Part shown: positions 1 to 57,174 of the stretch, piece after piece | How positions within the stretch are numbered: the stretch's first letter is position 1 | Layout of the letters: each line of letters opens with the position of its first letter | DNA from: Cyanidioschyzon merolae | Lineage: Eukaryota | Assembly: GCA_000091205.1 (NCBI GenBank) | Contig: AP006485.2 | Strand: one strand, 5' to 3' | DNA: 64,000 nt | Translations under genes and position numbers: made by a program | Notes under the pieces: model-generated | Databases searched by the model: none | What the model was told of the DNA's origin: nothing | Seen by the model: the letters and a program-made list of their open reading frames with translations, nothing else

Positions 1-1090
1 AGCGAGCTCCCAACTCGAACGAAGTGCACACGCTGCCACCTGTGCGGAGCAAGAGGTTCGGCGCGCGCTTCAGAGTACTTGTTGGGGGAAAACGTTCGCA
101 TCGCCATTTGGTCTCGCTGCCGGTTTCGATAAGGATGGTGTTGCAGTCGACGCGCTGTTTGATTTGGGGTTTGGCTTCGTAGAGGTGGGCAGCGTCACGC
201 CGCGACCCCAGAGCGGAAACCCCAGACCACGCCTGTTTCGGCTCGAGCCTGACGAAGCGATCATCAATCGAATGGGATTCAACTCAGCAGGATGCGAGGC
301 TGTGCGAGCGCACCTCAAGCGGCTCAGGGATCGCTCGCACGAGGCTGGACAAGTTGCCACGGCCCGGAATTCTGTTGCGAATACAACGCCAACGCAAACA
401 ATGCCGGGTAAGAAGCATCTGGGCATCAATATTGGGAAGAATCGCGAAACGAGCGAGGATGACGCCCTCTCCGACTATATTCAGGTGCTCCGAACTCTTG
501 GAGCTTTTGCGGACTACCTGGTAGTGAACGTCAGCTCACCGAACACGCCTGGTTTACGACTGCTGCAGCGAAAAGAGCGGCTGCGAGACCTCATCCGGCA
601 GCTGAAGCGCGAACGAGACGATCGTGGCCCGCAGTGGCAGCGGCTGCCGCTCTTGGTCAAGGTTGCTCCAGATCTCAGCGATGAGGAAATCCGAGATATT
701 GCGGAGATCGTGGTGAGCGAAGGTGTAGATGGTATTGTGGTCACCAATACAACGGTGCAACGACCAGTAACACTCCAGTCTCCCGTGAATCTCGTGCAGC
801 AGGAGGGCGGCCTGAGCGGCACTCCACTGCGGGACCTAAGCACATACGTCCTTGGTCGTTTCTATCGATACACGCTCGGCAAGGTGCCTCTGATCGGTGT
901 GGGCGGCATCTTCTCCGGCGCTGACGCGTACGCCAAAATCCGGGCTGGAGCATCACTCGTTCAGCTCTATACGGCGTTGATGTACGAGGGACCCTGCCTT
1001 GTTCCACGTCTTGAGCGGGAACTCGTGCAGTGTCTCCAGCGCGACGGTTACCGGAATATCGTCGAGGCGATCGGTGCAGATCATCGATAG
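1..1090 (+). CDS. DHODH: Dihydroorotate dehydrogenase (quinone), class 2, mitochondrial-type. The 5' end is truncated by the window edge.
   Basis: Reading frame is open from nt 2. The translation contains GLAAGFDKDG, GFGFVEVGSVTPRPQSGNPRPRLFRL, NRMGFNS, LVVNVSSPNTPGL, GGLSG-PLRDLST, IGVGGI-SGADAYAKIRAGASLVQLYTAL and a terminal GADHR. It is near-colinear with human DHODH. Stop codon TAG at 1088-1090. Confidence 0.95.
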   Translation, partial: ASSQLERSAHAATCAEQEVRRALQSTCWGKTFASPFGLAAGFDKDGVAVDALFDLGFGFVEVGSVTPRPQSGNPRPRLFRLEPDEAIINRMGFNSAGCEAVRAHLKRLRDRSHEAGQVATARNSVANTTPTQTMPGKKHLGINIGKNRETSEDDALSDYIQVLRTLGAFADYLVVNVSSPNTPGLRLLQRKERLRDLIRQLKRERDDRGPQWQRLPLLVKVAPDLSDEEIRDIAEIVVSEGVDGIVVTNTTVQRPVTLQSPVNLVQQEGGLSGTPLRDLSTYVLGRFYRYTLGKVPLIGVGGIFSGADAYAKIRAGASLVQLYTALMYEGPCLVPRLERELVQCLQRDGYRNIVEAIGADHR

Positions 1091-1184
1091 GACGCATTCG
1101 ACGATGAGGGTCACGAGACTGCAGCGTTTTATGTCATGCACTGAGCACTTTATATAGTTCAGGGATACATCAGATCCGATACTC

Positions 1185-1185
<1 letters not shown>

Positions 1186-1220
<35 letters not shown>
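1186..1220. repeat. (GCT/CTG)n trinucleotide microsatellite, ~11 units, in the 3' flank of DHODH.
   Basis: Perfect GCTGCT... run visible in the sequence. Confidence 0.9.
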
Positions 1221-1222
<2 letters not shown>

Positions 1223-3742
1223 TCGCGACACACGATAAAGCGCGTTGTGGATACGTTGTTGACCTCGGGTGTGTTCGAATCGTTAGGATCTCACACATGC
1301 GCAGGGCGTGATCTAAAGTCCATCGATTTCATTAGCGAATACATATTCATTTGAAAAATCCGATCCAAGTCGACGCATGTTCATCAAACGCGAGGTACCA
1401 GCATCCCTGCACGGTGACTACATTCCATCCATATTAGAATGACATGGAGCTAGTCCACTGATCCAATTCGAGCGAACGAGCCAGAGTTTGGGTCTCTCCC
1501 AACTGTGAAGAATACCAGCCAGCCATGACTGGCTTGTAATGAGACTGCTTCCTTTTCCTGTCTCTGATCTCCGGATTTTGAATACGGAGGTCCCTTTTTA
1601 CCCCTATATCCGTCGTCAGCTGTCGAGGATTGCTGCGTGCAGCGCTCAAGTTCCGACTTTGCTGCTTCCGACTCTTCGCAATCTATTTCATGCGTTGACG
1701 ACAGTTTGGATCCACGCTTCGTTTGCCATGTTCATCCTCTTTGCGTACAGCTTCAATGCGCCAGTCCGTGCATCGAAAATCGGCTGCGATCAGGTATGCC
1801 CATAAGTCCATGAGACCACCTTCGAATGCCGCTCTGTGGTGCATGAGCGCTTTCTTCATCGCTCGGGCGATACCCTCGACGGGCACAGAAGCTTATGCTC
1901 GATTCCTGGGTATGTTTTTGCAACTGGTGCCGGTCCGTAAGATCATCGGTTACAGCTGGGCGATCCCGAAGCCGAGTACGCTGTCTGCGACACACGCAAG
2001 TGCACGCTGTTGCATTTGGTAGAGGACTCGTTGAAAGTGATATTTTCCGTGACGAAACAAGTACAAGAAGCAAAATCCAACCTGGAGAACACGTCGAAAA
2101 ACTTCCACACGACAACGCTCTCTTTATGCGACCCGATGACGCACGCTTCGATGGATGTGATCGCTGTGCTTTCCAAGCGGAGCGCAGCGAATCCTCCTGG
2201 TCCCCGTGACGTAACAAATTCCATCGACAAAGCGTCGAAGGAGCCATTCCGAGAACGCGACCGAGAATCCTAAAAGCACATATGAATCTGAAACCTGATA
2301 TGAACGTTTTCAGAATATGGCGGCTGAACATGCAAAACAAGTATCGATAAAAAAACCGATACCCTGGAACAGACCGACCAGTGCATATTTCCATTTGAAT
2401 CGTACAAGGGTGCAGGCTCGACAACGTCAAAGCGGGATCGATCAGAACACTGGAGCGTCGGGAACTACAGTTGAGAGCGCGATGATGCTGGTCGATAGCC
2501 GCTGGGACCTCGAGGTGTCTGCACAGGCGTAGAGGTCTCTTCCGTAGCCGCTGGAAGCACGCGCGTTTCACTGGGCAGTGCGGATGCATCCGCCCTACCG
2601 AGTGCAGAAAAAAGCCATAGGCAACAAGCACGTCTCTTTCCAAAGCAGCGACGCAGTTGCATATTCCGCTAGGCAGGGTGCCTGTTCCGTTCCAGCGAAT
2701 CAGTGGCTGTAGAGCAGCTGCATGGACTCTGGGCTCATAGGCAGCGGTCGTTCGATACCACCAATGCTCGATTGTCGTGCCGCTCGCCTCCGGTGCGTAG
2801 CGGGACAACAACGACAACGACGACCATAGCAACTGCAATGACGGTATGGTATAGAATAAACCGTCTGCTCTCGCTGGAGCAGGGCATCGTCGACATCGCG
2901 AAGCTCGCCTGACAGAGGAGTGCCCCCGAAGCGGAACGCGTCTGCGTCATGCATTCCTCGTGCAGAGGCTACCACCCTGGAGGCAGTTTCCGCATATCGC
3001 GGGCTCTAGCAGCGAGCCCGCCTTCGAAGCAAGTTCGATACGAACGCATATCGTCCGAGTCGAAGGGCCCAATTTAGTTGAAGACTTCTGCTTGCGGTTC
3101 GCGAGAGGAAAGCGAATACACCATGTGACGATGCATGCGTCGCTGATACGATGGATTCCACGCTGCCGTCTCGAAGCGTTGCGTCAAAAACGCTTGAGAA
3201 GCCTCTAGACACAATCACACATGAAGCCGCTGACTGGTACGTTTTCATCGGCCGTTCGCGCTGCTCCACAGACAATCCGGCATGTCCTCAACGGTCTCGT
3301 TTGCGAGCTGTGGTACAGCCTCGCCTGCAACCAGCGCACGCTTAGGACGGTACCCTGATGCCTTTTTCTCGAATACCATGATGCTGGATACGGTATCAAG
3401 CTGCAGACCGGTATCTGGTGGAGTCGCCTTCAAGTCCGAGGCCGACGCGACGAAGTGTCCCTCTGGGGGTATCCCGTGCAACGCTGGCATCGCCACAAGC
3501 GACCTGAACGAGCTTCGCTGACGCAGGGAACTTTCGTCGCTTGTAAACCGGGAATCGATGCAGTCTCGTGGCGTGCGTCGCCTTTGGTCTTTCGTTTACG
3601 AGAGATGAGCACGCGCTAACGCATTGTGCGCGCGTTATCTTCAGCATGACACTCGACAGCGAGATCGTCTTGCGTATGCATATGCTCCGCGTTTCTCGAT
3701 ACAAGCTGGGCGCAGTAGACGAGCCCCCGCCGAATGGCCTCA

Positions 3743-37262: not shown

Positions 37263-38830
37263 GCGCATCGCGGCTGCGCATTTTGACGTGTCATCGTGGA
37301 TGAGACGTAGAAAGAGGCGGCGAGGGAGTCGCTTCTATTCCTTGCGCTATTCTCTGGTACAGAGAACTGCTTACTTGAACCTAAAAAGTACACGAAGATG
37401 ATGACGGAAGCATCGGTTTTGCAAAATATGGCTTGTACGCAGAGCAGTGCGTGCTCGAACACCCGTACCAGCACGCCGTTGTTGTTTCTAGTTGTTTTTC
37501 CCACTGGTATTCAACAGAACGAATATGGCCCATGGGTTGGGGAAACATCGAGGTAGGGGCTTTACCCTGTCCCTGATTTGTCATGAGCGAAACGCCAAGT
37601 TGGCCATTGTACGTTCAGCAAGTGGATGAACCGTCCTACACCTCGTCCTTGTGCTGAATATCATGCACTTGATCCAGAGCTTGTCGGGATTCATCTTCAA
37701 CATTGCCTTGTCGTGAATCCATGCAGCTCCACACGTTCTGGGGCAAAGCTCACAAAAAGACAGGGAATCTGTGGAATCTTCGCACCGCTCATATAAATCG
37801 TGATGGAGCGACGCGAATGGACAACAAGAAAAAAACGCCCCTACGGGAGAACGTCGAGTGTTTAACAGCATACTCCCGGTTGCGCACTCGAACGTAAACG
37901 CTCATTCCAGGATGCAAAGATATTCCTCTCAATAGATCAGACCGTATTCGGGAGTATTGGTCCACCCGGCTGTGGCTACTCAAACAGAGCTCATTTGCTG
38001 TTCGTAGATACTTGACAAGCTGGCATGCCGACAACACAAGCCCTAGCAGCAATACGATCGTGCCGTCGCCGGGATACCGCCAGGTGGACAGGGTAGGTTC
38101 GTACGGTATCCTTGAGAGAAACAAGTTGTGACTTCTCCTTCCCCCAAATTCTCTCGCATGCTGGTTGACTACGTCGCTTGCCATGAGGCAAGGGCGGTCC
38201 AGGAGTGTGCGGCTGAGACTGGCGGGATGCAAATCTTCGTGCGAAACTAGGCTCCCTGGTTCAGTCCAGTCGAAGGCGTCTGCTCAGTAGTCAGCCATGA
38301 AATATAGGCTCACGAATCTATATACGAATCGTGCTCGATCTTTACCGACGCTGGACTGCTCTGTCGCACCAGTCCTCGTGTGCCGTTGATTCCGAAAAGG
38401 CACACCTGGTTCATAGACACGCTCACAATCGTAGAGATAATGAGAATGCAGTAAAGGAATAGTGCATCCATAAATGCAGAGGGCGAGCTTCAGTCACAAG
38501 TAGTAACCAGTGCATAGGAGTCCCGCGGAGAAATCGAGAATGGAGTATAGTGACGACATATTTGCCAGCCCACGCTGGAAAGGTAAAGGCAGAGATGGCG
38601 CTTGTGGCGGTGAGAAGCTCCAAAGCATTTGAACAACGCGACGAGGAGCAATGGGGCACCTCATCCCAAGCCGCTGTTTTTCCGGGCGAGAGTGGATCAT
38701 CAGTTTCAGAATCAGTACAGATCGACGGCATACGCTTCTGCGTGCTTTTTGTGAAACCCAGACCTGCTTCGAGCAGCGACACTCATTTTCAAACATTCGC
38801 GCTAGATCAAGAGAAAGACTTGATGGTGTC

Positions 38831-38856
38831 TGTGTCTGTGTGTGTGTGTGTGTGTC
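38831..38856. repeat. (TG)n dinucleotide microsatellite.
   Basis: tgtgtctgtgtgtgtgtgtgtgtgtc. Confidence 0.85.
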
Positions 38857-41003
38857 GATCCCCGGTTGCCGGACGTCATGGATATCGCGACACCTGCAAA
38901 TCAAGCGGATGCAGCCATTGAGCGGTAAGGAAAGCGCGCGAAGCTGCTCAAGTTTTCCAGCACCCGTTATCACCGACATTCGGGTATATCAGACGCCAAC
39001 AGGCATGCCAGTGCGCTCAACGACAGCATCAGAATCCATGGCGGTGCACTGAGAACCGTATCGATGAGCCCAGGATACCTCGCAAAAGCTCGGTTTCAGC
39101 GAAAGCTCACGAGCGTCCCCCGGTCGCATGGAGTCAATCTTTGGCAAGAGTGCGTGGCAGACTTTTGTCGGAATCGCCAACGACCTCCGTTGTACGTAGG
39201 CAAGAATCGTTCCTGCGCTAACGCGTTCAATGAGTCTCAAAATGAACTGTGCAAAGCATCGTGTCGTTTGGGGATTCTCTCGGGCGATAGACGTGCTGGA
39301 GCGCGCACTAGCTGCACTCCTGCTTATTCAAACAGAGCTTTCCATGAAACAGGAATCGACTTTGTCTGACGCCCGTTGATGCTCTAAAGACAACATACAC
39401 CAAAGAGAAACGCGTTGTCCGCTGGAACTCGTAATGAAGAAGCGCGTGCACAAGACGGTGTGCAATATACACTTCGAGTGTCAGATATCGAGACAGTTCA
39501 AGGTCCGAAGCATTTCGTCGTGAGAGGCTACCAGCATCCATGAGAACGTGCACTTTCTGAACTGAACCATCAAAACCTCGCTCCAGGTCAGCAACGTTTG
39601 TCGTGCTTCCGCCGGGTCCAAGGCCTATGTTTCGAACGGAGATTCGAGGGAATTCTAGGCCAGTCAGCTTATGTATTGTGCTGCGACGCTGAGGATTTCG
39701 ATGAAGAAAAACCAGTAGCCAGGAGAGACGGCAGGGTATGCTCGCCCGCACCAAGGCACTGGTTTGATACAGTTCAGCAGTCCACAAAGCCTGGTGCACC
39801 ATGTTTAACCATTCAATGGGAGCGACTCCCCCGTTCGGCTATTCAGCAACGATCATGCAGTTCCATAACTCGATATGACTGAGTGTACGTGATAAGCGAC
39901 GTCAACGCTGTCACGGATGCTTCGTACTCCTAGCACCTCGATACCACTGCTGTTCAGCCCAAAACCCGAGCGTCCACGGATCCGCTGACTCGCCAGACAT
40001 CGAGTGAGCACAGTTCGGATTATAGTGAGTTGCCCTCAACGATTTCAGATCGCGCTTGTGTAACCTAGTGTGTCTCCCGGGGGCCCGTCCTGGCCCTATG
40101 CACCCCCAGCTGGTACACGAAGGCCTGCCACCAGCGTCGACCAAAGCGTTAGAGGAATCCGGCGTTGAGCGCGACCTCCGAACGCAGAGCGCTCCCGTCG
40201 CAGGTGAAGCCCCTTGATGCAGCTCCACGGAAAACTAGAAATGCTGGAGCGCTCCATGATCGGTGTACCTTAAGGACACCCTCATCCTATATCGACCAGC
40301 ACGTGGAGCCGGACGCGGTCATGCACCGCTGTAGGCTTTGACGCTGCGCGGTCGGTAACGCTGCTCGATGGGCGATGTGCTTGAGAGGCGCACCTCATGA
40401 CTGCTTGGTTGTGGCGACAACGACGATACAGCCTTGAGGTCATGCGACATTGACAGCTGCGCGCTGGTCAAACGAACAGGCATACATGTGTCGCTTGTTT
40501 GAGACGATTGTTCGTCCTAGTTGCGCACGATGTTCATAGAGCTGACGGATGCGTAGAACAACGAGAACGTCATCGAGCACTCGAATGCAACGAGGCATGG
40601 TTACCCTCTTCATCCAGTATCCAAGTGCTGGCAGGCGGCCCCAGGTGTCTGGTTTCTCAAGTGGTGTTCGCGCTCCTCGCATTGTCCAAAAAGATCCACA
40701 CGCGCCTCGTTGACGTTTCGATTTACCGCGATTTGGTTACTGGCTGACCATCCAGTCGATGCTCGTGAATTTATTGTCTGGGAAACTTGGCATTCATCAG
40801 GCGTAAAGAGCGAACACCTCGCGATGGAGTGAAGCACACGCGCGCGAAGCAAAGACTCGAAGATGCAAGCGCGTTGGAATGTAACGCTGCAAACCAGTCG
40901 AGCTTCCTCGCTCCGTCCGAGCACTGCTCTAGCTCGTTCCGCAAACAGGAAAATGCATGCACTCGTAGCGCTATCAGTGCCCATTTCCGTTCCAGAAAGA
41001 ACC

Positions 41004-49230: not shown

Positions 49231-50358
49231 TCACTGGAGGTACTCGAAGATACTGCGTAGCCGCGTACGCGTCACCAATCCGGTCTCAGCCATCGAAGTG
49301 ACGTCCATGGTCAGATCTAAAGGCCGCCGCAGACCGCTCTCCGCTGAAAGGCCGGGCGTGATTCGCCCGGCTGCCCGATGACGGTACTCGCTCCATCGTG
49401 TCGATAAGAGACGCTGGGCGAGCGCAAAGCGATTCGTTGTTTCCGGGCACGCCAGATGAATGACGGTGGCTGTATCACCATCCATCGTGACGCGCTCGCA
49501 TCGAATAGCAGTGGCGACCTCGACAAGTGCCTCGGCCAAGTCATTCGACCATGACATATTTCGAATCTCATCGGTGAAGAGAACCAACGGCTTTTCGTGC
49601 GTTTCGATGAGAGCCGAGCGCAGAAACGCGATCGCTTTTCCATCTTCATGCGGTTGCATACCGAGCGTTAGAATAAGTGATGTACGGGCAATAACAAGAT
49701 CAGGGTGGTGTATGTTTTGCAAGGTATCCTCCATTTCTACTTTGTAGTGACCATACGGATTGAGCGGTCGGCGTGGGGCATCCGTGGTATACGGCGGGTG
49801 CGGCGGCACGCCATCGAACACCTGGTCCGTCGATATCGCGACAAAGCGGCACGAACTGCGCTCCGCACCCTCTACCATGCCTGCGAGCTTGGTTGCCTCT
49901 GCTGCGTAGAGAACATGGTCAACGATTCCAGAGCGAATGTCGTCTCCGCCTGGGCCTGCGGCACCACCGTGTTTCGGAACAGCGCAAAAAACCACCGTGA
50001 GCAACGGTCCGATTTCCGTGCTTGCTCGCTGAATCAGGTCTGAAGTAGCACGTCTATCAGCGGTGTCTAGGTAAAACCATCGTACGGAAGGAGCTTTTGA
50101 TCCAACCGGTGTGCACACTGACGGTCTTCGAGTGCGGTAGGTCGCCCAGACGGCACGAACGCCACTTACAGTTGGCGTTTCCGCAGCTTCGGCTGCCGCC
50201 CGCACAAGAGCGGAGCCGAGTTCACCGCTACCGCCGATCACGAGCAGACCACGCTGGCTCTCAGCGCTGCCATCATATGGGCGATAAACAGCACGAGCTC
50301 GCGAACCGTTCATACCAGAAACCGCAAGCGTGCTGCTGCTGCTGCTGCTGCGGGTCAA
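49231..50358 (-). CDS. NAD(P)-dependent epimerase/reductase of the RmlD (dTDP-4-dehydrorhamnose reductase) / MAT2B-like family.
   Basis: Gly-rich Rossmann motif LLVIGGSGELGSALV. Substrate-binding segment ISTDQVFDG ... PYTTDAPRRPLNPYGHYKVEME matches the RmlD YxxxK region. Confidence 0.5.
   Translation of the reverse strand: MTRSSSSSSTLAVSGMNGSRARAVYRPYDGSAESQRGLLVIGGSGELGSALVRAAAEAAETPTVSGVRAVWATYRTRRPSVCTPVGSKAPSVRWFYLDTADRRATSDLIQRASTEIGPLLTVVFCAVPKHGGAAGPGGDDIRSGIVDHVLYAAEATKLAGMVEGAERSSCRFVAISTDQVFDGVPPHPPYTTDAPRRPLNPYGHYKVEMEDTLQNIHHPDLVIARTSLILTLGMQPHEDGKAIAFLRSALIETHEKPLVLFTDEIRNMSWSNDLAEALVEVATAIRCERVTMDGDTATVIHLACPETTNRFALAQRLLSTRWSEYRHRAAGRITPGLSAESGLRRPLDLTMDVTSMAETGLVTRTRLRSIFEYLQ
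50331..50351. repeat. (GCT)n microsatellite inside the 5' end of the RmlD-like gene, where it encodes the polySer stretch.
   Basis: tgctgctgctgctgctgctgc. Confidence 0.8.
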
Positions 50359-51199
50359 TGGGGCTTCGCTTGTGCGTTGCTGTTCGCGAGCGCTCGCATC
50401 AACGACGAGTGCTGTGCCAGGTGTCGCTAGTAATCGTGCTACCGGTGTTTTCTGGTGCGTGTAAACGCTCCTCAGCCTCCAGAAGGACTATACGTTGGTA
50501 TCTGCTCCACAGGCGCGCGACAGCTCCACCGCAGCCTCGCGATATCGTATGCGGTATCGACGGCAGCGATCGTGTCGGTGCCCAGGCGGCAACGCTCCGT
50601 AAACCTGCAGTACGCGCTCGACTGCACCGTGGTGTATTCGTCTTTGGCAATATTCTCTAACGACGAGGCATGTATCGATGTGGTGCAGGTGCCGTCAACC
50701 AGCGGGACACCTAACTCGCTGGGCAGCTCAACCAGTGCGTTCTCCATGCTCGCGACTCACCGATGCCCAGTGAGCCGACGCAGTTCGCAGACATCCCTCG
50801 GGTCCGGTCGTGCGTTTCAAACAAAAGTCACCGAACGATGCGCTGCTGTGCGTCGCGGGCGGTCAAGCGTAACGACGCGATGCCATGTGATGCGAAAGCA
50901 GTCGGAGGACGAGCTAGAGCCGGGTTGCGCTCGCCATGAAGATCCTCCGATATGCGAGGAATGTTTCCCAGGTCGTTGTAACGCACCGGATGCCTGTCTT
51001 CAATAGGAGAGTATTGGCCATGAGCAAATCCGTGCGACGGTCACGAAGAAACCGGCTCGATGTTTTGAGCTGGGCTCGAATCGATGCACATCGAGGGTTG
51101 CTCATGGTCTCGCATCAATGACGCCGAACTGACTTTCGGAAAGTGGCACTGACGTCCAACAGCGTCGCAAACTTTGCCCCCAGTGTAGCATGCGTAACA

Positions 51200-54100
51200 T
51201 CGAAAAGGTTTCTCCGCAAGCACGAATCACTCCCAGGGGCATTTCAACCGATTTTCCTGGAGTATCGCGAATGCCTTTCAAAAGTTGAAAGCAGTCGCCA
51301 GCAGTTTACAGAAGTGGCGAGTGACCCGCCCTGGACAGAACGTCTCCACCTGACGTGCAGGCGCCATCCAGATCATTTGGACCGGCTATCCACTACTGGT
51401 TTCAAATTCTCTTGTACAAATCCACTGTAAAAGGTTGCCGCACAAAAATCTGTCTCGTCAACTCCGAAAGTCTCTTCTCCATCACCGCGCATCTCGTTAT
51501 GTTGATTGCTGCGTTCAAGTCCTGGTTCACGAATTCCACACGTTTCTTGTCGTTGGTTTTACTTACTAATGCAAGTAGCCCGAACTTTCGCCCTTCTTTC
51601 TATTTGCTCTTCCGTCAGCGCTCCATACTTTGCTGTATCCTCAGGGCTCCGATGGCACTTTTGTATCTCGACCCTCTGGAGTCTACACACCGGTTCTTGG
51701 TGAATGTATGACGCTCGGAACTCATATATCGATATTGTGACAAAACGCCGTGCGCACGCCGTGTACGTTCTCGTCGTTGGAGCTGGCGTATATCCTTTTC
51801 TGGGTCATCCAGCGCCCTGCTCCGTACGCCATTATGAGTATTTGACTCTCGTCCTCCTGCAAGGCGCTCAACTGATTGAAAAGTTGGCGAATGCACGCTG
51901 CTTCCCACATTCCAAGTTCGAACGCAGACGAGCCCACTGGGGCTTTGTATACTCTTTCCACAGCGCGCCTCCCAATGAGCAGCGCGAAATTTCGTGAATT
52001 TCAGAACAGCTTGAAAGTCCGCCCCGCGGGTAGTCACCTGGCTGATCGCTTTCAGTTGCTCTCTCACTCCTGCATTCCATTTCTCAGTTTTCTTCCTCGC
52101 ATTCATTTTTCCCGATTCTCGGTTCTATCTAGCACTTGAGAGCGTTAACAGACGCACGTTTTTCTGACGAAAGTTAGCGTCAATGCCATCTTCCGCACGC
52201 TTGGGTACTGCAATGGTTATGATATTCGTGTTCCAAGGGTCCGCGCCAACGACCAAATCGTTCTCATGCACTCTCTGCGTCGCAAGGTCCGCCTCCTTCT
52301 TTTCTTCATGCTTCGCCACGCCAACGACAAGGTCGTTATCCTCCACTTACTTCGTCGCTGGATCCGCCTCCTTCTTTTCTTCAACCGCCGATAGTGTAGA
52401 CACAAGGTTACTCCATCAGTTTCGATCATCCCAGTGAATACCTTTTGTTTGCTCACTTTGAGACGTTTGAAATTGAAGATATTCTTCTTACTGTACGTCT
52501 CCCGGTTCTCACGGGTGAAGTCCTCCCTGCTAACATTGAACTCCGGACTGATCTCCCTCATGATGCCGTAAAGGACACCGGAGTCGATAGTCCCAAAATG
52601 TGACTTGATGTTGCACAACGGGACGACCTTGAAGCGCTTTCCCATCAGGGCAGCCTTCCGTCTCACCCATTCTTCATTTTCCCGCTGCTCAGCTCCTTTT
52701 CGGCCTTGCGTTCGAGCTCTCGGTCCAAAAACACGAAATATTGCAGGATGAGGCGATAGCACCTATCGTTATCTTTTTTCATGTCTGATACCTTTTCTTT
52801 TGTGTTGACGAGCCCCAAGACTGAACGATGCTCTTTCATAGTCGCATGGATTACAGAAGCTTCATTCGTTCGCTTTCGTGACGTCTTCTCGTCGACGAAT
52901 TCGATATCTTCTTCATTCTTACGATCGTTCCTGACGCCATTGATGATGGCCCATATTCCCTGGCGGACGAAGTCCGGGTAGGGTGCAATGATGGAGTGTT
53001 TCATGAAGCTTTTGAGGTTCGTAGTCATGAGGTTCTTCATGTTCGTGAGGTACATTCTCGCCTCGTATTCGTAAATATACCCATCATCATTGTACCGAGT
53101 ACCTTCGAAGCGGTATTCGTCGTGATTTTCGTGGACGGCATGCACTCACTCATTTTTCGTCGACGTTTTGCCCTGTACCAAGCATCAGGTGGCGAATGAA
53201 TGTCATAATGAAAAATTCCTTCATACCTCGACTGTTCCCGTGTGCGTCACTTCGTCGTACACCTCCTCCACCGAATGCATTAGCCCAGACGAGGCCTCTA
53301 TAATACTCATGGAGCACGAATCGACACGGTTTCTGATGGCCTCTTGGAACTTTTGGTTCTACGGATCCTTGATATATCCAAGAAGGCAGGCTTTCACTAC
53401 CATGTCGTCGTAGTGCAGTCTTTCATGCGGGAATTGACGTTGCGACTCCCCCGTTGTTTCTTCGTCTTTTCCAATTCTTCTTTTCTCAGTACTGTTTTTC
53501 GGTTTTCTCCATCAGCCGGCGACATCAGGCTTCCGGGTTCCTTTACTTCCACTTCCATGACTTTCCTTTTTTTGAAAACGAACACACTTTAAACGTTTCT
53601 GGTATAAACCGCGAAAAATAACTTGAATATACAAACGTGAAATTTGAAAAGTAATTGAAATGAAAAACTGTATTTTTAGACGTCTTCTGCGCCAGTACAA
53701 CTTGTAGGTTAGAGCAACAAGTCAACGAATGGCCAGGCTCGCGCTTCCCTTCATTGGCGAGATACACGTCGAGTCTCATGCCTGCCAGACAAGGCGGTGC
53801 CAGTTTTCGACCGTACTATATAGAAAACAGACCAGAGACTATCCACGAACTAGCAACGAGATAAGAATTTCTTTCGCCCTCTACGATTAACGTTACAAGA
53901 GGCAAAACTTGTTCCGCATTGCCAAAAATGTACCTTATGGGAGCAACGTCCCGTTATCCAAACGAGTCCTCCAGGCTCGAGCTCTCTGCGCTCCCAGTGA
54001 CGGGTGCTCTGGTGAGAGGCCTGAGCAACTCGTCCACAACGCAGTTTACGCTGGAACTAGGAGCAGGATGCTGCGTCAGGGCATCGTCCTGGTCGCAGTG

Positions 54101-54450
54101 GACTACTAGTAGATCCCTTCGCGCTTTCGCAAACAGTACGCCTGTCTGCGCAGCTTGCTGGCTCCCAGAACGATAACTAGCCGTGTTCGCGTATCAGATG
54201 TAGCGTTCCTCAAGCCGATGCCTTCAGTGGGACTGCCAACACAGTTCTGTCTTCGTGATGCATCTGAACCAACGGTAAAGGCGCAATCGCGGACGATCAT
54301 GCCGTGCGCACGACCCACGATAGAACGTACAATTCAACCAGTATGCCCGGGTCTACGTATGGGTAATGGAACTGAAAAGTAGGGCGTGGATCGATGGATG
54401 CTTTACTGCGCGCTGAAAACAACCAAAAAAGAAACGAGAAGAAAGTAGAG
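51200..54450 (-). other. AT-rich compositional island (~35-45% GC against ~57% for the rest of the window). It carries a series of frameshifted, K/R/E-rich minus-strand ORFs. Possibly a degenerate mobile element or a foreign-derived insertion.
   Basis: There is a marked drop in GC, for example around 53560-53700. Minus-strand ORFs 53543..53779, 53397..53585, 52663..53145, 52217..52762 and 51615..52106 lie in shifting frames with 100-bp overlaps. ORF 52217..52762 has motifs '[27 protein letters not shown]' and '[16 protein letters not shown]', which are reminiscent of a DDE-transposase catalytic region but unassigned. There is a 2-copy ~72-bp tandem repeat at 52247-52390. Confidence 0.35.
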
Positions 54451-54660
54451 AAAAAGCGGACAGCCGAAGAGCGCCGGCCTATGTGAGATCGATTTGTCTA
54501 TTTAAGAAAAATCGACAGCCAGCAGCGACACATCGAGAGGCGTTGGACACGCGCGCCTTGCGAACCTCCGCAGACCTGCGCAGATACCGCACACAGACGC
54601 TTTCGCACGCGTATATGGATACGTTGCTGTGACCTGCGCTGTGCGCGACCTCGGGACCCG

Positions 54661-57174
54661 TTGACAGGCCACATAATGCGGACAGTTAGGGTACCGAAAA
54701 AGTCGACAGAGCGTATTCCAGTACTTGAATCGGTTGTTTTGAGATCGCTGTTCGAGTTTCGAGGAGCTGTAACGCCAGCTCGGCGCGAGGGGGTCACGCA
54801 GCGCTACGAGCACGCGTGCAAGCACCTGAAAGCGTTGCGCGAACGAGTGTCGGTCATCAGCTCTGCTCCGGACGTTGAACGAGCTGGTGATGCCGTCCAA
54901 GTCATTCGAGACTACTACCGGGCGTTGCGTTTTCTGGAGACGCGCTTTGTTTTCAGGCGTGCGGTTGCACCTGCGTCAGTGCGGCGAGGTCTACTACAGC
55001 GCCAGAACGGTACGAGTACGGGGCAACAGAAGACGGGCGCAGGACACGTAGACGCTCCTAATGTAACGCTAACTTTCACTTGGATGGATGCGTTTCAAAC
55101 TAGACAGCGCTGTTCGAGCTCTAGCACACAGCTGGAGAAAGCCGGTCTGCTATTCAATCTGGCGGTGTGCTATTGCACGCGGGCCCATGACCTGGTACTG
55201 CCGGAGCCGCTGACCGAGGCCGCACTCAGAGAAGCGTTACAAGGTTTTCAGTGTGCTGCTGGTCTTTTCGCACTCATTCAGCACATGTCGCTGGACAGTA
55301 TTGGAGCGGACCTCACTCAGGATCTGCACCAAACGTCGCTGGATACGCTGAAACTAGTCATGCTTGGCAATGCACAACTTTGCACCGTCGATTTCGCGAT
55401 TGCCGAGAATCGATCGAGTTCGACGGTGAGCTGCCTGGCAGGTGGTGCTGTCGAGCTGTACGGGCGGGCAGTAGCGAATGCCGGGACTCGTTACTTCCCC
55501 GCCGACTTTATCGTTGAATTAGAGCTGCTCCGAGATTACGCTGAGGCGGTTGCCATGCAGTACGCTGCAATGGAACTTGATGCAGACGGCACCGGGGATA
55601 TCCAACGGCTCATGGCGATGCAGGAGGAGGATTTAGTAGAAAGAGCGCGGCGGTATTCCGAAGCGGTCGTCATCGCGGAAAGGCTACTCAAGAGTGAGCT
55701 CGTCCGGCGCGATACACCGTTGCAACGACGCATCGAAGCTCTTCGCGATCGATGTCGTTCCGCCCGCGAGCGCTGTGAACGTGAAAATGCGGTTGTTTTT
55801 CAAGTCGATTTCAGCAAAAGACGCGCGGATGACAGAAATCGTCACTCAGCGCCGTCGCAACTGCGTAGACGCATCCTGGCAACGACACCTGATCTACGAG
55901 AACTGGCGGCGTCGCTGGGCGATGGCCAGGCAGCGGAACGCATGGCCGCCCTGAGTCCCGCTGCGTTTCTTCCGCCGAGTTCACCGCTCTTGGCCCTACA
56001 GAATCTGGTGCCACTCGAATTCATCCCAATGCGAAATGATTACGACAAACGGGTCCGCGCTCTGGTCGAGCGAGCAGTAGAGCGGCTGCGGGAAGCGAAT
56101 CGCGTTTCAGGCAGCCTGCGAAGAGAGCTGAATCTCGAAGCGATCCTCGCGAGTATTCCGAGAAAATTCTCTGACCTGCGCGAGACCGAGACACCGGAAG
56201 AACTTAACCGTGGAACGGTTGTGCGATTCAAGGAGTTGCACGCAGATCTCAACGCGGAAGAAGGTTCCGACCGACTCGCTTCAGAGCTGATCCGCCAAGC
56301 CAAGGAGAAAGTGCGGCGGGCGGAAATCCTTCTGAGCGCAGAGGCAGCGGAAGACGCGGAGTGGCGCGCTAAACTCCGAGGCCGTGCGCATCGGCCGGAA
56401 TCCGCGGAAGCCCAACAGTCATACCACGCCGAACTGCATCTTATCCAAATTGAGCTGCAAGCTTGCACAGCCGCGAGGCGCAGTGTGAGCACGCGAGCCC
56501 AACATTGTCAGGAGTCGAGTGTTCGCGACGCCTTGTCCATTTTGGAACAAAACGGATCCAACGGGGAGACCACCAGTGCCGCCACTAGTACTGCAACCAT
56601 CACCACCAGTGCCCCGGCTCAGTGTGGGTCCATTTTCGACCATCGGTCGCGGGTAATCACCACTGAGCACCCAGTGGCTGTGCAGTTGCACCATGCTGCA
56701 GCGCGACTGGTTGACATGGAGACACGCAGGGACGCGGTCGCGCGCGAACTAGAACAGCAGCGCTTTTCGGACGACTTTGGGTGCACCCTGCTCGAAGATC
56801 CGCTGCCGGATGATGATTTCCACGCAAGCGCAACCGAAATTATCGAGCGAATCATCGAACGGCGTTATGGGGCCCTCATTCGACGCGCGGAAGATCTCCT
56901 AGGGAGCGTGGCTTCCAGTGCGCGCCACGAACTCATCAAGGCGGTCGAAGATCTCAAAAGTCTGCGGGCGGAGAGGGATCGCGAGCTGGCCGCAGCTGCA
57001 GATTTGGCCGGGCGGGTGCATCGAGCCATTGAGGATATGCAGGCGCTCATTCAGGAAAGAAACCGCGTGCGAGAGCGCTGTTCCCGTCTTCTCGAACGAT
57101 CCGAAGCATTACTCGGGAGCGTCGAGGGGTTCTGTGAAGCGCGTCGACTTGAAGTTTCGCTAGGGTCGTCATGA
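54661..57174 (+). CDS. BRO1-domain protein (ALIX/Bro1 family, ESCRT-associated).
   Basis: N-terminal BRO1 signature: ... YYRALRFLETRF ... FTWMDAF ... SSSTQLEKAGLLFNLAVCYCTRA ... LQGFQCAAGLFALI. It is followed by a long helical V-domain-like region. Uninterrupted 837-aa ORF. Confidence 0.65.
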   Translation: MTGHIMRTVRVPKKSTERIPVLESVVLRSLFEFRGAVTPARREGVTQRYEHACKHLKALRERVSVISSAPDVERAGDAVQVIRDYYRALRFLETRFVFRRAVAPASVRRGLLQRQNGTSTGQQKTGAGHVDAPNVTLTFTWMDAFQTRQRCSSSSTQLEKAGLLFNLAVCYCTRAHDLVLPEPLTEAALREALQGFQCAAGLFALIQHMSLDSIGADLTQDLHQTSLDTLKLVMLGNAQLCTVDFAIAENRSSSTVSCLAGGAVELYGRAVANAGTRYFPADFIVELELLRDYAEAVAMQYAAMELDADGTGDIQRLMAMQEEDLVERARRYSEAVVIAERLLKSELVRRDTPLQRRIEALRDRCRSARERCERENAVVFQVDFSKRRADDRNRHSAPSQLRRRILATTPDLRELAASLGDGQAAERMAALSPAAFLPPSSPLLALQNLVPLEFIPMRNDYDKRVRALVERAVERLREANRVSGSLRRELNLEAILASIPRKFSDLRETETPEELNRGTVVRFKELHADLNAEEGSDRLASELIRQAKEKVRRAEILLSAEAAEDAEWRAKLRGRAHRPESAEAQQSYHAELHLIQIELQACTAARRSVSTRAQHCQESSVRDALSILEQNGSNGETTSAATSTATITTSAPAQCGSIFDHRSRVITTEHPVAVQLHHAAARLVDMETRRDAVARELEQQRFSDDFGCTLLEDPLPDDDFHASATEIIERIIERRYGALIRRAEDLLGSVASSARHELIKAVEDLKSLRAERDRELAAAADLAGRVHRAIEDMQALIQERNRVRERCSRLLERSEALLGSVEGFCEARRLEVSLGSS

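Follow-up and report, generated by a model that had tools for sequence, protein, structure and literature searches.

CMe-1A is a transposable element of the thermoacidophilic alga Cyanidioschyzon merolae described by Bao and Jurka (Mob DNA 2013, 4:12; PMC3627910), and the 64,000-nt stretch of C. merolae contig AP006485.2 analysed here (the window) contains a low-GC island that is almost certainly a single ancient, inactivated copy of it, with Fanzor1 as the sole gene of the element. The Repbase consensus of CMe-1A is 3169 bp long, and each of the ~150 copies of the family is ~80% identical to it (PMC3627910). The element has no terminal inverted repeats (TIRs) and carries an open reading frame (ORF) for a 734-aa Fanzor1 protein, CMe-1. 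Its 5' 635 bp are 95% identical to a separate short element, TE-N2_CMe, and a few of the copies are still intact (PMC3627910). Other Fanzor1 proteins use an omega-RNA that derives from the element's 3' end and runs ~14-15 nt into the flank as the guide, and cleave double-stranded DNA at the RuvC site in dependence on a target-adjacent motif (TAM). The discussion of that work proposes that the cutting supports maintenance of the transposon by cut-and-copy repair, and the ORF-less "ghost" loci of Spu-1 in S. punctatus were found to supply working omega-RNAs (PMC10432273). The locus described here belongs to a family that was already in the literature and brings nothing new in kind.

The assignment to CMe-1A is made at the DNA level. 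The consensus was taken from supplementary file 2 of Bao and Jurka 2013 and compared with the window by blastn and global alignment. Consensus positions 64-3168 match window positions 54404-51273 on the minus strand with 80.4% identity over 3152 columns, in agreement with the published per-copy figure, and this is the sole match in the window. The copy has accumulated 512 substitutions and 49 indel events relative to the consensus. Taken to the last consensus base, it occupies 51272-54404 on the minus strand (consensus 64-3169 of 3169). It resembles the rest of the family in being collinear, in the same host species, with a single ORF, an AT-rich leader, a 3' tail and no TIRs. The initial annotation had proposed a search for TIRs at the element ends; a repeat search of the window found no inverted repeat joining the two boundaries, as PMC3627910 reports for the family.

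Read on the minus strand, the copy begins with the 5' non-coding part (consensus 64-635) at 53828-54404, which the alignment map places at 77.6% identity to the consensus; TE-N2_CMe, related to this part, has roughly 70 copies of its own. It is followed by the AT-rich leader upstream of the Fanzor1 ATG at 53559-53827, with a GC content of 0.405 here and 0.433 in the consensus; GC in the island is lowest in this leader. Two A/T runs had been remarked on in this region. The one at 53560-53700 is this leader, just upstream of the ATG, and the one at 54400-54500 falls just outside the recognisable 5' end. The relic of the Fanzor1 ORF (CMe-1, 734 aa) occupies 51331-53558. The last segment, at 51272-51330, is a 3' non-coding tail with a terminal hairpin, 74.6% identical to the consensus, and is a candidate for the right end of the transposon or for an omega-RNA scaffold.

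The protein was placed in Fanzor1 through its relatives. The stitched translation of the relic has 72 homologues with E-values as low as 1e-187. All come from a small number of JGI metagenomes (P0001-P0072; locus L001), and the JGI annotation had already tagged them PF26935, or DUF8286. Neither Pfam, in a version that does not include PF26935, nor NCBIfam gave a match for the stitched protein or its close paralogues, and a literature search on "DUF8286" found nothing. Intact homologues carry GADPGNTNII, VDEFRTS and FVNRDFNAAINI, which suggested a RuvC triad, and this suggestion was then put to the test. Against the PDB, a profile built from the 72 close paralogues returned noise only, that alignment being too shallow. 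An exhaustive representative search produced 1460 relatives at E <= 1e-3, and a family alignment was made of 47 diverse full-length relatives, 27-39% identical to the intact paralogue P0004. In it, D484, E656 and D725 (P0004 numbering) are invariant. The profile of the 47 matches PpFz1 (9cf0) at E = 2.6e-21, SpuFz1 (8gkh) at 3.4e-14 and GtFz1 (9cer) at 3e-8. The three invariant residues align in 8gkh to chain positions 777, 935 and 1000, which are SpuFz1 D383, E541 and D606 at a constant offset of 394 due to a fusion tag. Both structural papers name these residues as catalytic (PMC10432273, PMC11423790).

The fold was tested on P0004 rather than on the dead window copy. The AlphaFold2 (AF2) model built on the diverse alignment has a predicted local distance difference test score (pLDDT) of 79.1 and a predicted template modelling score of 0.77; an earlier AlphaFold model on a shallow alignment, with a pLDDT of 45.7, was not used for the fold search. 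The best seven Foldseek matches in the PDB are all Fanzor1, with E-values from 6e-16 to 2.5e-13. The match at 6e-16 is SpuFz1, with a target-normalised template modelling score of 0.71-0.72, and structures of Cas12, Fanzor2 and TnpB rank below with E-values of ~1e-2. CMe-1 shares with SpuFz1 (8GKH), PpFz1 (9CF0) and GtFz1 (9CER) the Fanzor1 fold, made up of WED, REC and RuvC, and the N-terminal helical REC region. It also shares the motif order TDG, DPG (RuvC-I), DEFRTS (RuvC-II) and NRD.NAA.N (RuvC-III), with the catalytic D/E/D, although the sequence identity to the solved proteins is only 12-15%. By profile, fold and aligned D/E/D, the ORF product is a Fanzor1, a eukaryotic TnpB-like RuvC nuclease, and by the same sequence and fold evidence the DUF8286 (PF26935) label on these proteins corresponds to Fanzor1. 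Nucleases of the TnpB/Fanzor type are accessory RNA-guided nucleases of a transposon, not its transposase.

The prokaryotic relatives are a more distant comparison. TnpB of IS200/IS605 and IS607 and Cas12f have in common with CMe-1 the RuvC core and the C-terminal NAA.N helix, and there is a weak Pfam Cas12f1-like_TNB signal among the CMe-1 relatives, matched by 19 of the 47 diverse sequences. CMe-1 differs from them in its eukaryotic host, its much larger N-terminal region and the lack of a TnpA in the element, and the TnpB and Cas12 matches are far weaker than those to Fanzor1.

In the window the gene is dead. The initial annotation described overlapping minus-strand ORFs in different frames that resembled one decayed gene, with K/R/E-rich translations. 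Those ORFs and both peptides quoted from them are present, and tblastn with relatives (P0004 among them) and with the published consensus protein merges them into one broken gene of ~2.2 kb, 53558-51331. The protein is indeed rich in K, R and E, which make up 30% of it in the CMe-1 consensus. The tblastn alignments require at least five frame changes, and a three-frame translation displays a single gene hopping from frame to frame. In the register of the consensus, the relic retains 70% amino-acid identity with 3 nonsense codons and 17 indel-hit codons; the stop codons are more numerous than 3 when each frame is read literally. About 17 codons present in the consensus just upstream of a 25-aa repeat are missing, and the TAG that ended the ORF is now CAG. 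Because of the frame changes and the several stop codons, the window copy cannot make a Fanzor1 protein and is a pseudogene. All three catalytic codons survive on the minus strand, without effect inside the broken ORF. They are the RuvC-I Asp at 52239-52241 (D431 of the consensus, in GADPWNT here and GADPGNT in the consensus, aligned to SpuFz1 D383), the RuvC-II Glu at 51721-51723 (E603, in IYEFRA here and VDEFRTS in the consensus, aligned to E541) and the RuvC-III Asp at 51519-51521 (D672, in VNQDLNAAINI here and VNRDFNAAINI in the consensus, aligned to D606).

Immediately before RuvC-I, between it and the TDG beta-hairpin, lies a tandem repeat. A repeat of ~72 bp had been reported at 52247-52390; it is real, but Tandem Repeats Finder and a second repeat finder give a period of 75 bp and a span of 52244-52383 (minus strand), with 1.9 copies at 81% match. 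The 75 bp encode the 25-aa unit KHEEKKEAD.ATQ.V..NDLVVG. (also written KHEEKKEAD.ATQKVQDNDLVV..), and the true-frame reading in the window is KKEADPATK*VEDNDLVVGVAKHEEKKEADLATQRVHENDLVVGADP. What had been taken for a poly-R/K tail is an out-of-frame reading of this repeat. The number of units varies from one in the consensus to two in the window copy and two to five in the paralogues (P0001-P0008), so that the window copy departs from the consensus in having two units as well as in its frameshifts and stops. The region is predicted to be disordered, with a pLDDT below 50 over P0004 residues 374-470 of the AF2 model, and the solved Fanzor1 proteins do not have this variable insertion before RuvC-I.

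Nothing we found contradicts the identification as CMe-1A and Fanzor1; the caveats bear on mechanism. To our knowledge, no transposase is known for CMe-1A. Consensus positions 1-63 cannot be recognised in the alignment of the window copy, and its 5' boundary is therefore only approximate. SpuFz1 and PpFz1 have a CxxC...C(x)nC arrangement between RuvC-II and RuvC-III, whereas the CMe-1 consensus and paralogues P0001-P0008 have two isolated cysteines only in that interval (consensus residues 603-672). The CMe-1 clade is therefore without the CxxC...CxxC zinc ribbon of the TNB/NUC domain, which appears from the sequences to have been lost; this is a clade-level departure and does not undo the homology. 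Finally, the case for an omega-RNA-like structure at the 3' end is weak. RNAalifold found no consensus structure in the 3' ends of 44 copies, and folding of single sequences gave z-scores of -2.0 to +1.3, which are not unusual.

The structural question was examined on the last ~220 nt of those 44 copies, with three named stems including the terminal hairpin, whose end coincides with the last conserved bases. The hairpin is UUUCAA-CUU-UUGAAA in the window copy and is predicted in 7 of the 8 copies folded. At least three versions of its sequence occur, namely GUUCGA/UCGAAC, GUUCUA/UAGAAC and the UUUCAA/UUGAAA of the window, which differ by double (compensatory) changes, with G-U pairs (3' ends L002-L081; alignment A4, columns 194-224). 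In these stems 76.5% of cells are paired, a share that drops to 38-55% with slid partners. Changes on both sides of a stem were counted in 28 cells, compared with 16.9 in shuffles, and none of 500 shuffles reached 28; the covariation score was reached by 25 of 500. The stems so tested had been derived from the same sequences. Taken together, the sequences are no more than suggestive of an omega-RNA-like 3' structure. The 3' alignment also extends 10-15 weakly conserved nt beyond the published consensus end (TTYGNTG...), so that the element may in fact end after position 3169.

The alternative that survives best is that the ORF is dead and the locus is nonetheless functional as non-coding DNA, either as a ghost omega-RNA donor guiding Fanzor1 made from an intact copy or as a promoter or insulator for the neighbouring ALIX-like gene. 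The hairpin of the window copy differs from the commonest variant by two double (compensatory) changes that preserve it, at least one paralogue has a near-full ORF with D/E/D intact, and the S. punctatus ghost loci offer a precedent (PMC10432273). On the other side, the 3' tail has diverged no less than the other parts of the element, there is the RNAalifold result already given, and the folding energy of the tail is the same as that of its shuffles (z = 0.02). We regard a function of this kind as decidedly improbable and take the locus to be a plain inactivated copy of CMe-1A.

The age of the insertion bears on the second alternative, that the island is a giant-virus fragment or some other recent horizontal acquisition integrated at this site. 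The initial annotation had favoured a horizontally acquired or mobile insertion, possibly of viral derivation, and had proposed looking for the island at the orthologous site in relatives. It is there, with the same spacing, in all seven other C. merolae-like assemblies examined (JGI metagenomes 3300005573, 3300005861, 3300051093 and 3300050359, and three ENA assemblies). The island is 99.2-99.6% identical across them and the neighbouring coding sequences are 99.5-99.8% identical. Between strains the island has thus diverged by 0.4-0.8% and its coding neighbours by 0.2-0.5%. The divergence is about two to three times higher in the island, as expected of unconstrained DNA. The insertion appears to be old within the species complex, being in every assembly examined, and to be unconstrained. 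In the samples 3300005573, 3300005861 and ENA ERZ272472xx/ERZ27249350 (L090-L095), C. merolae-like populations exceed 99% identity to strain 10D over the locus, on contigs of up to 160 kb.

The base composition of the island had been read as a sign of foreign origin. The GC content of 51272-54404 is 0.490, compared with 0.574 in ORFs of at least 250 aa and 0.551 in the remainder of the window. The island is the 3.1-kb minimum of the 64 kb, with the runner-up outside it at 0.521. In a sliding window, the GC content goes from ~0.56-0.60 in the flanks to 0.42-0.50 over ~51250-53950, and the lowest 300 bp, at 53350-53650, has 0.417. The drop that was called sharp is real but moderate. The CMe-1A consensus itself has a GC content of 0.524, under both the coding and the non-coding values of the host. 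The substitutions that separate the window copy from it comprise 245 from GC to AT and 137 from AT to GC, from which an equilibrium GC of ~0.38 is implied for unconstrained sequence. The island is low in GC because the element is intrinsically GC-poorer than its host and has undergone ~20% neutral divergence biased to A/T. The GC skew and AT skew of the plus strand are both negative in the island because the purine-rich coding strand of the K/R/E-rich protein is the minus strand. Fanzor genes do occur in large double-stranded DNA viruses (PMC3627910), and this with the GC content below that of the host is what a viral or horizontal origin has in its favour. Against it, the sequence belongs to an endogenous family of ~150 copies and aligns to the consensus over its whole length, its composition is accounted for as above, searches of IMG/VR and PHROGs gave no close relative and no match, respectively, and the copy is ~20% diverged and common to all the C. 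merolae-like assemblies examined. We found no evidence of recent arrival and consider such an origin very improbable indeed; the decayed mobile-element-derived gene that was proposed in place of a host gene is a copy of the multi-copy CMe-1A.

A decayed DDE-type transposase gene (Harbinger/PIF, MULE, ISL2EU, KDZ or similar) had been suggested from a G-x-I-x-x-D-G block thought to resemble the region of the first catalytic Asp. That superficial likeness and the basic composition are all that speaks for it. The block is the IETDGV encoded at 52409-52426 (minus strand), a conserved Fanzor1 motif upstream of RuvC-I. Its Asp is invariant in the 47-sequence alignment (D359, P0004 numbering), and the block aligns to FQGTLETDGV in PpFz1, FEGSITTDGA in SpuFz1 and FDNAVVTDGV in GtFz1. 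Profile searches after frame-corrected translation, as had been proposed, gave no DDE family in Pfam for the stitched protein, the intact paralogues or the 47 distant relatives. The fold search gave only Fanzor, TnpB and Cas12 structures, and the element boundaries have no TIRs. The Fanzor1 sequence and fold matches refute the DDE reading, to which we attach next to no probability. That the island is instead an ordinary host gene with introns, its frameshifts only apparent, has nothing beyond general possibility to recommend it, in an alga with very few introns, and can be set aside with near certainty: the changes of frame fall at indels of 1-2 bp with respect to the consensus and the stops fall inside well-aligned protein segments, no gene is annotated at the island, and its divergence between strains exceeds that of its coding neighbours.

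The host is C. merolae 10D, to whose proteins the flanking ORFs are exactly identical in 8 of 8 cases (range BAM78973-BAM78993). The island is flanked on one side by a dTDP-4-dehydrorhamnose-reductase-like (RmlD-like) gene, BAM78992.1, at 49231-50313 on the minus strand, and on the other, 271 bp away, by the ALIX/BRO1-like gene BAM78993.1 at 54676-57174 on the plus strand. Since these are consecutive accessions, there is no annotated gene between them. Several metagenome assemblies call a gene on a 183-aa ORF at 50455-51006 (plus strand), which separates the RmlD-like gene from the element; with no Pfam match and no counterpart among the C. merolae 10D proteins, it is probably spurious. Scanning the window for Rfam families and tRNAs gave no hits.

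Most of the metagenomic homologues are CMe-1A paralogues that belong to C. merolae-like populations. Identity to the consensus is 80-92% at their 3' ends, identity of whole copies to the window copy is 72-74%, and none of the fetched paralogous loci has the flanks found in the window. A near-full ORF with all three motifs is present in 1 of the 62 distinct copies fetched, in agreement with the remark in PMC3627910 that a few copies are intact. In two of the metagenome paralogues (L025 and L026), an 801-aa ORF starts inside the Fanzor1 C-terminus (MERMSKVRGLLALVS...) and reads on past the end of the element, probably as an artefact of ORF finding ahead of a host gene. The 5' flanks of the paralogues (L005-L081) are in most cases a run of T closed by a C, as in GATTTTTTTC|CGATGAC, and the plus-strand A-run near ~54425-54460 of the window is the same feature. 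Judging from these flanks, the T-run may reflect a preferred target or serve as a TAM-like motif. The 3' flanks begin with TTYG; no clear target-site duplication was seen across the paralogues, and the 5' end of the window copy is unclear.

The window also has a second Fanzor1-like relic, at 38592-39519 on the plus strand, in a low-GC intergenic block at 37263-41003 (GC 0.527). From RuvC-I ('DPRLPDVMDIATP...') onwards it is 30-38% identical to CMe-1 relatives at the protein level, with stop codons, and it matches the family hidden Markov model at an independent E-value of 4e-9; a weak upstream piece is in another frame. It is much older than the CMe-1A copy and, because it has no DNA similarity to CMe-1A, is probably from a different, extinct Fanzor family.

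By analogy with the Fanzor1 systems that have been studied, an intact CMe-1 protein would bind an omega-RNA made from the 3' end of the element that encodes it, and ~15 nt of flanking sequence would guide it to cut matching DNA beside a TAM. Following the proposal in the literature, such cutting would help the element to persist or spread through cut-and-copy repair. Spu-1 has 30-nt inverted repeats and CMe-1A has none.

The initial annotation was right to single out the island, a transposon fossil that had been catalogued before, and its DDE-transposase lead should be abandoned. As calibration, the combination of a moderate dip in GC and overlapping, frameshifted, basic ORFs did point to a real relic of a mobile element, but the "catalytic" motif and "poly-R/K tail" were misread. 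Population-level work on CMe-1A copies can draw directly on the C. merolae-like metagenome populations. Of minor value are the correspondence of DUF8286 to Fanzor1 and four features of the CMe-1 clade, namely the lost zinc ribbon, the variable 25-aa repeat, the terminal hairpin and the T-rich 5' flanks. There is some chance, which we put low, that the CMe-1 lineage is a Fanzor1 system that has stayed active without a zinc ribbon, in a thermoacidophilic alga, with dead copies serving as ghost omega-RNA loci. The idea comes from the near-intact paralogue with D/E/D, the compensatory hairpin and the T-runs as a possible T-rich TAM. If it is true, the lineage would provide a heat-tolerant RNA-guided nuclease with an unusual TNB domain.

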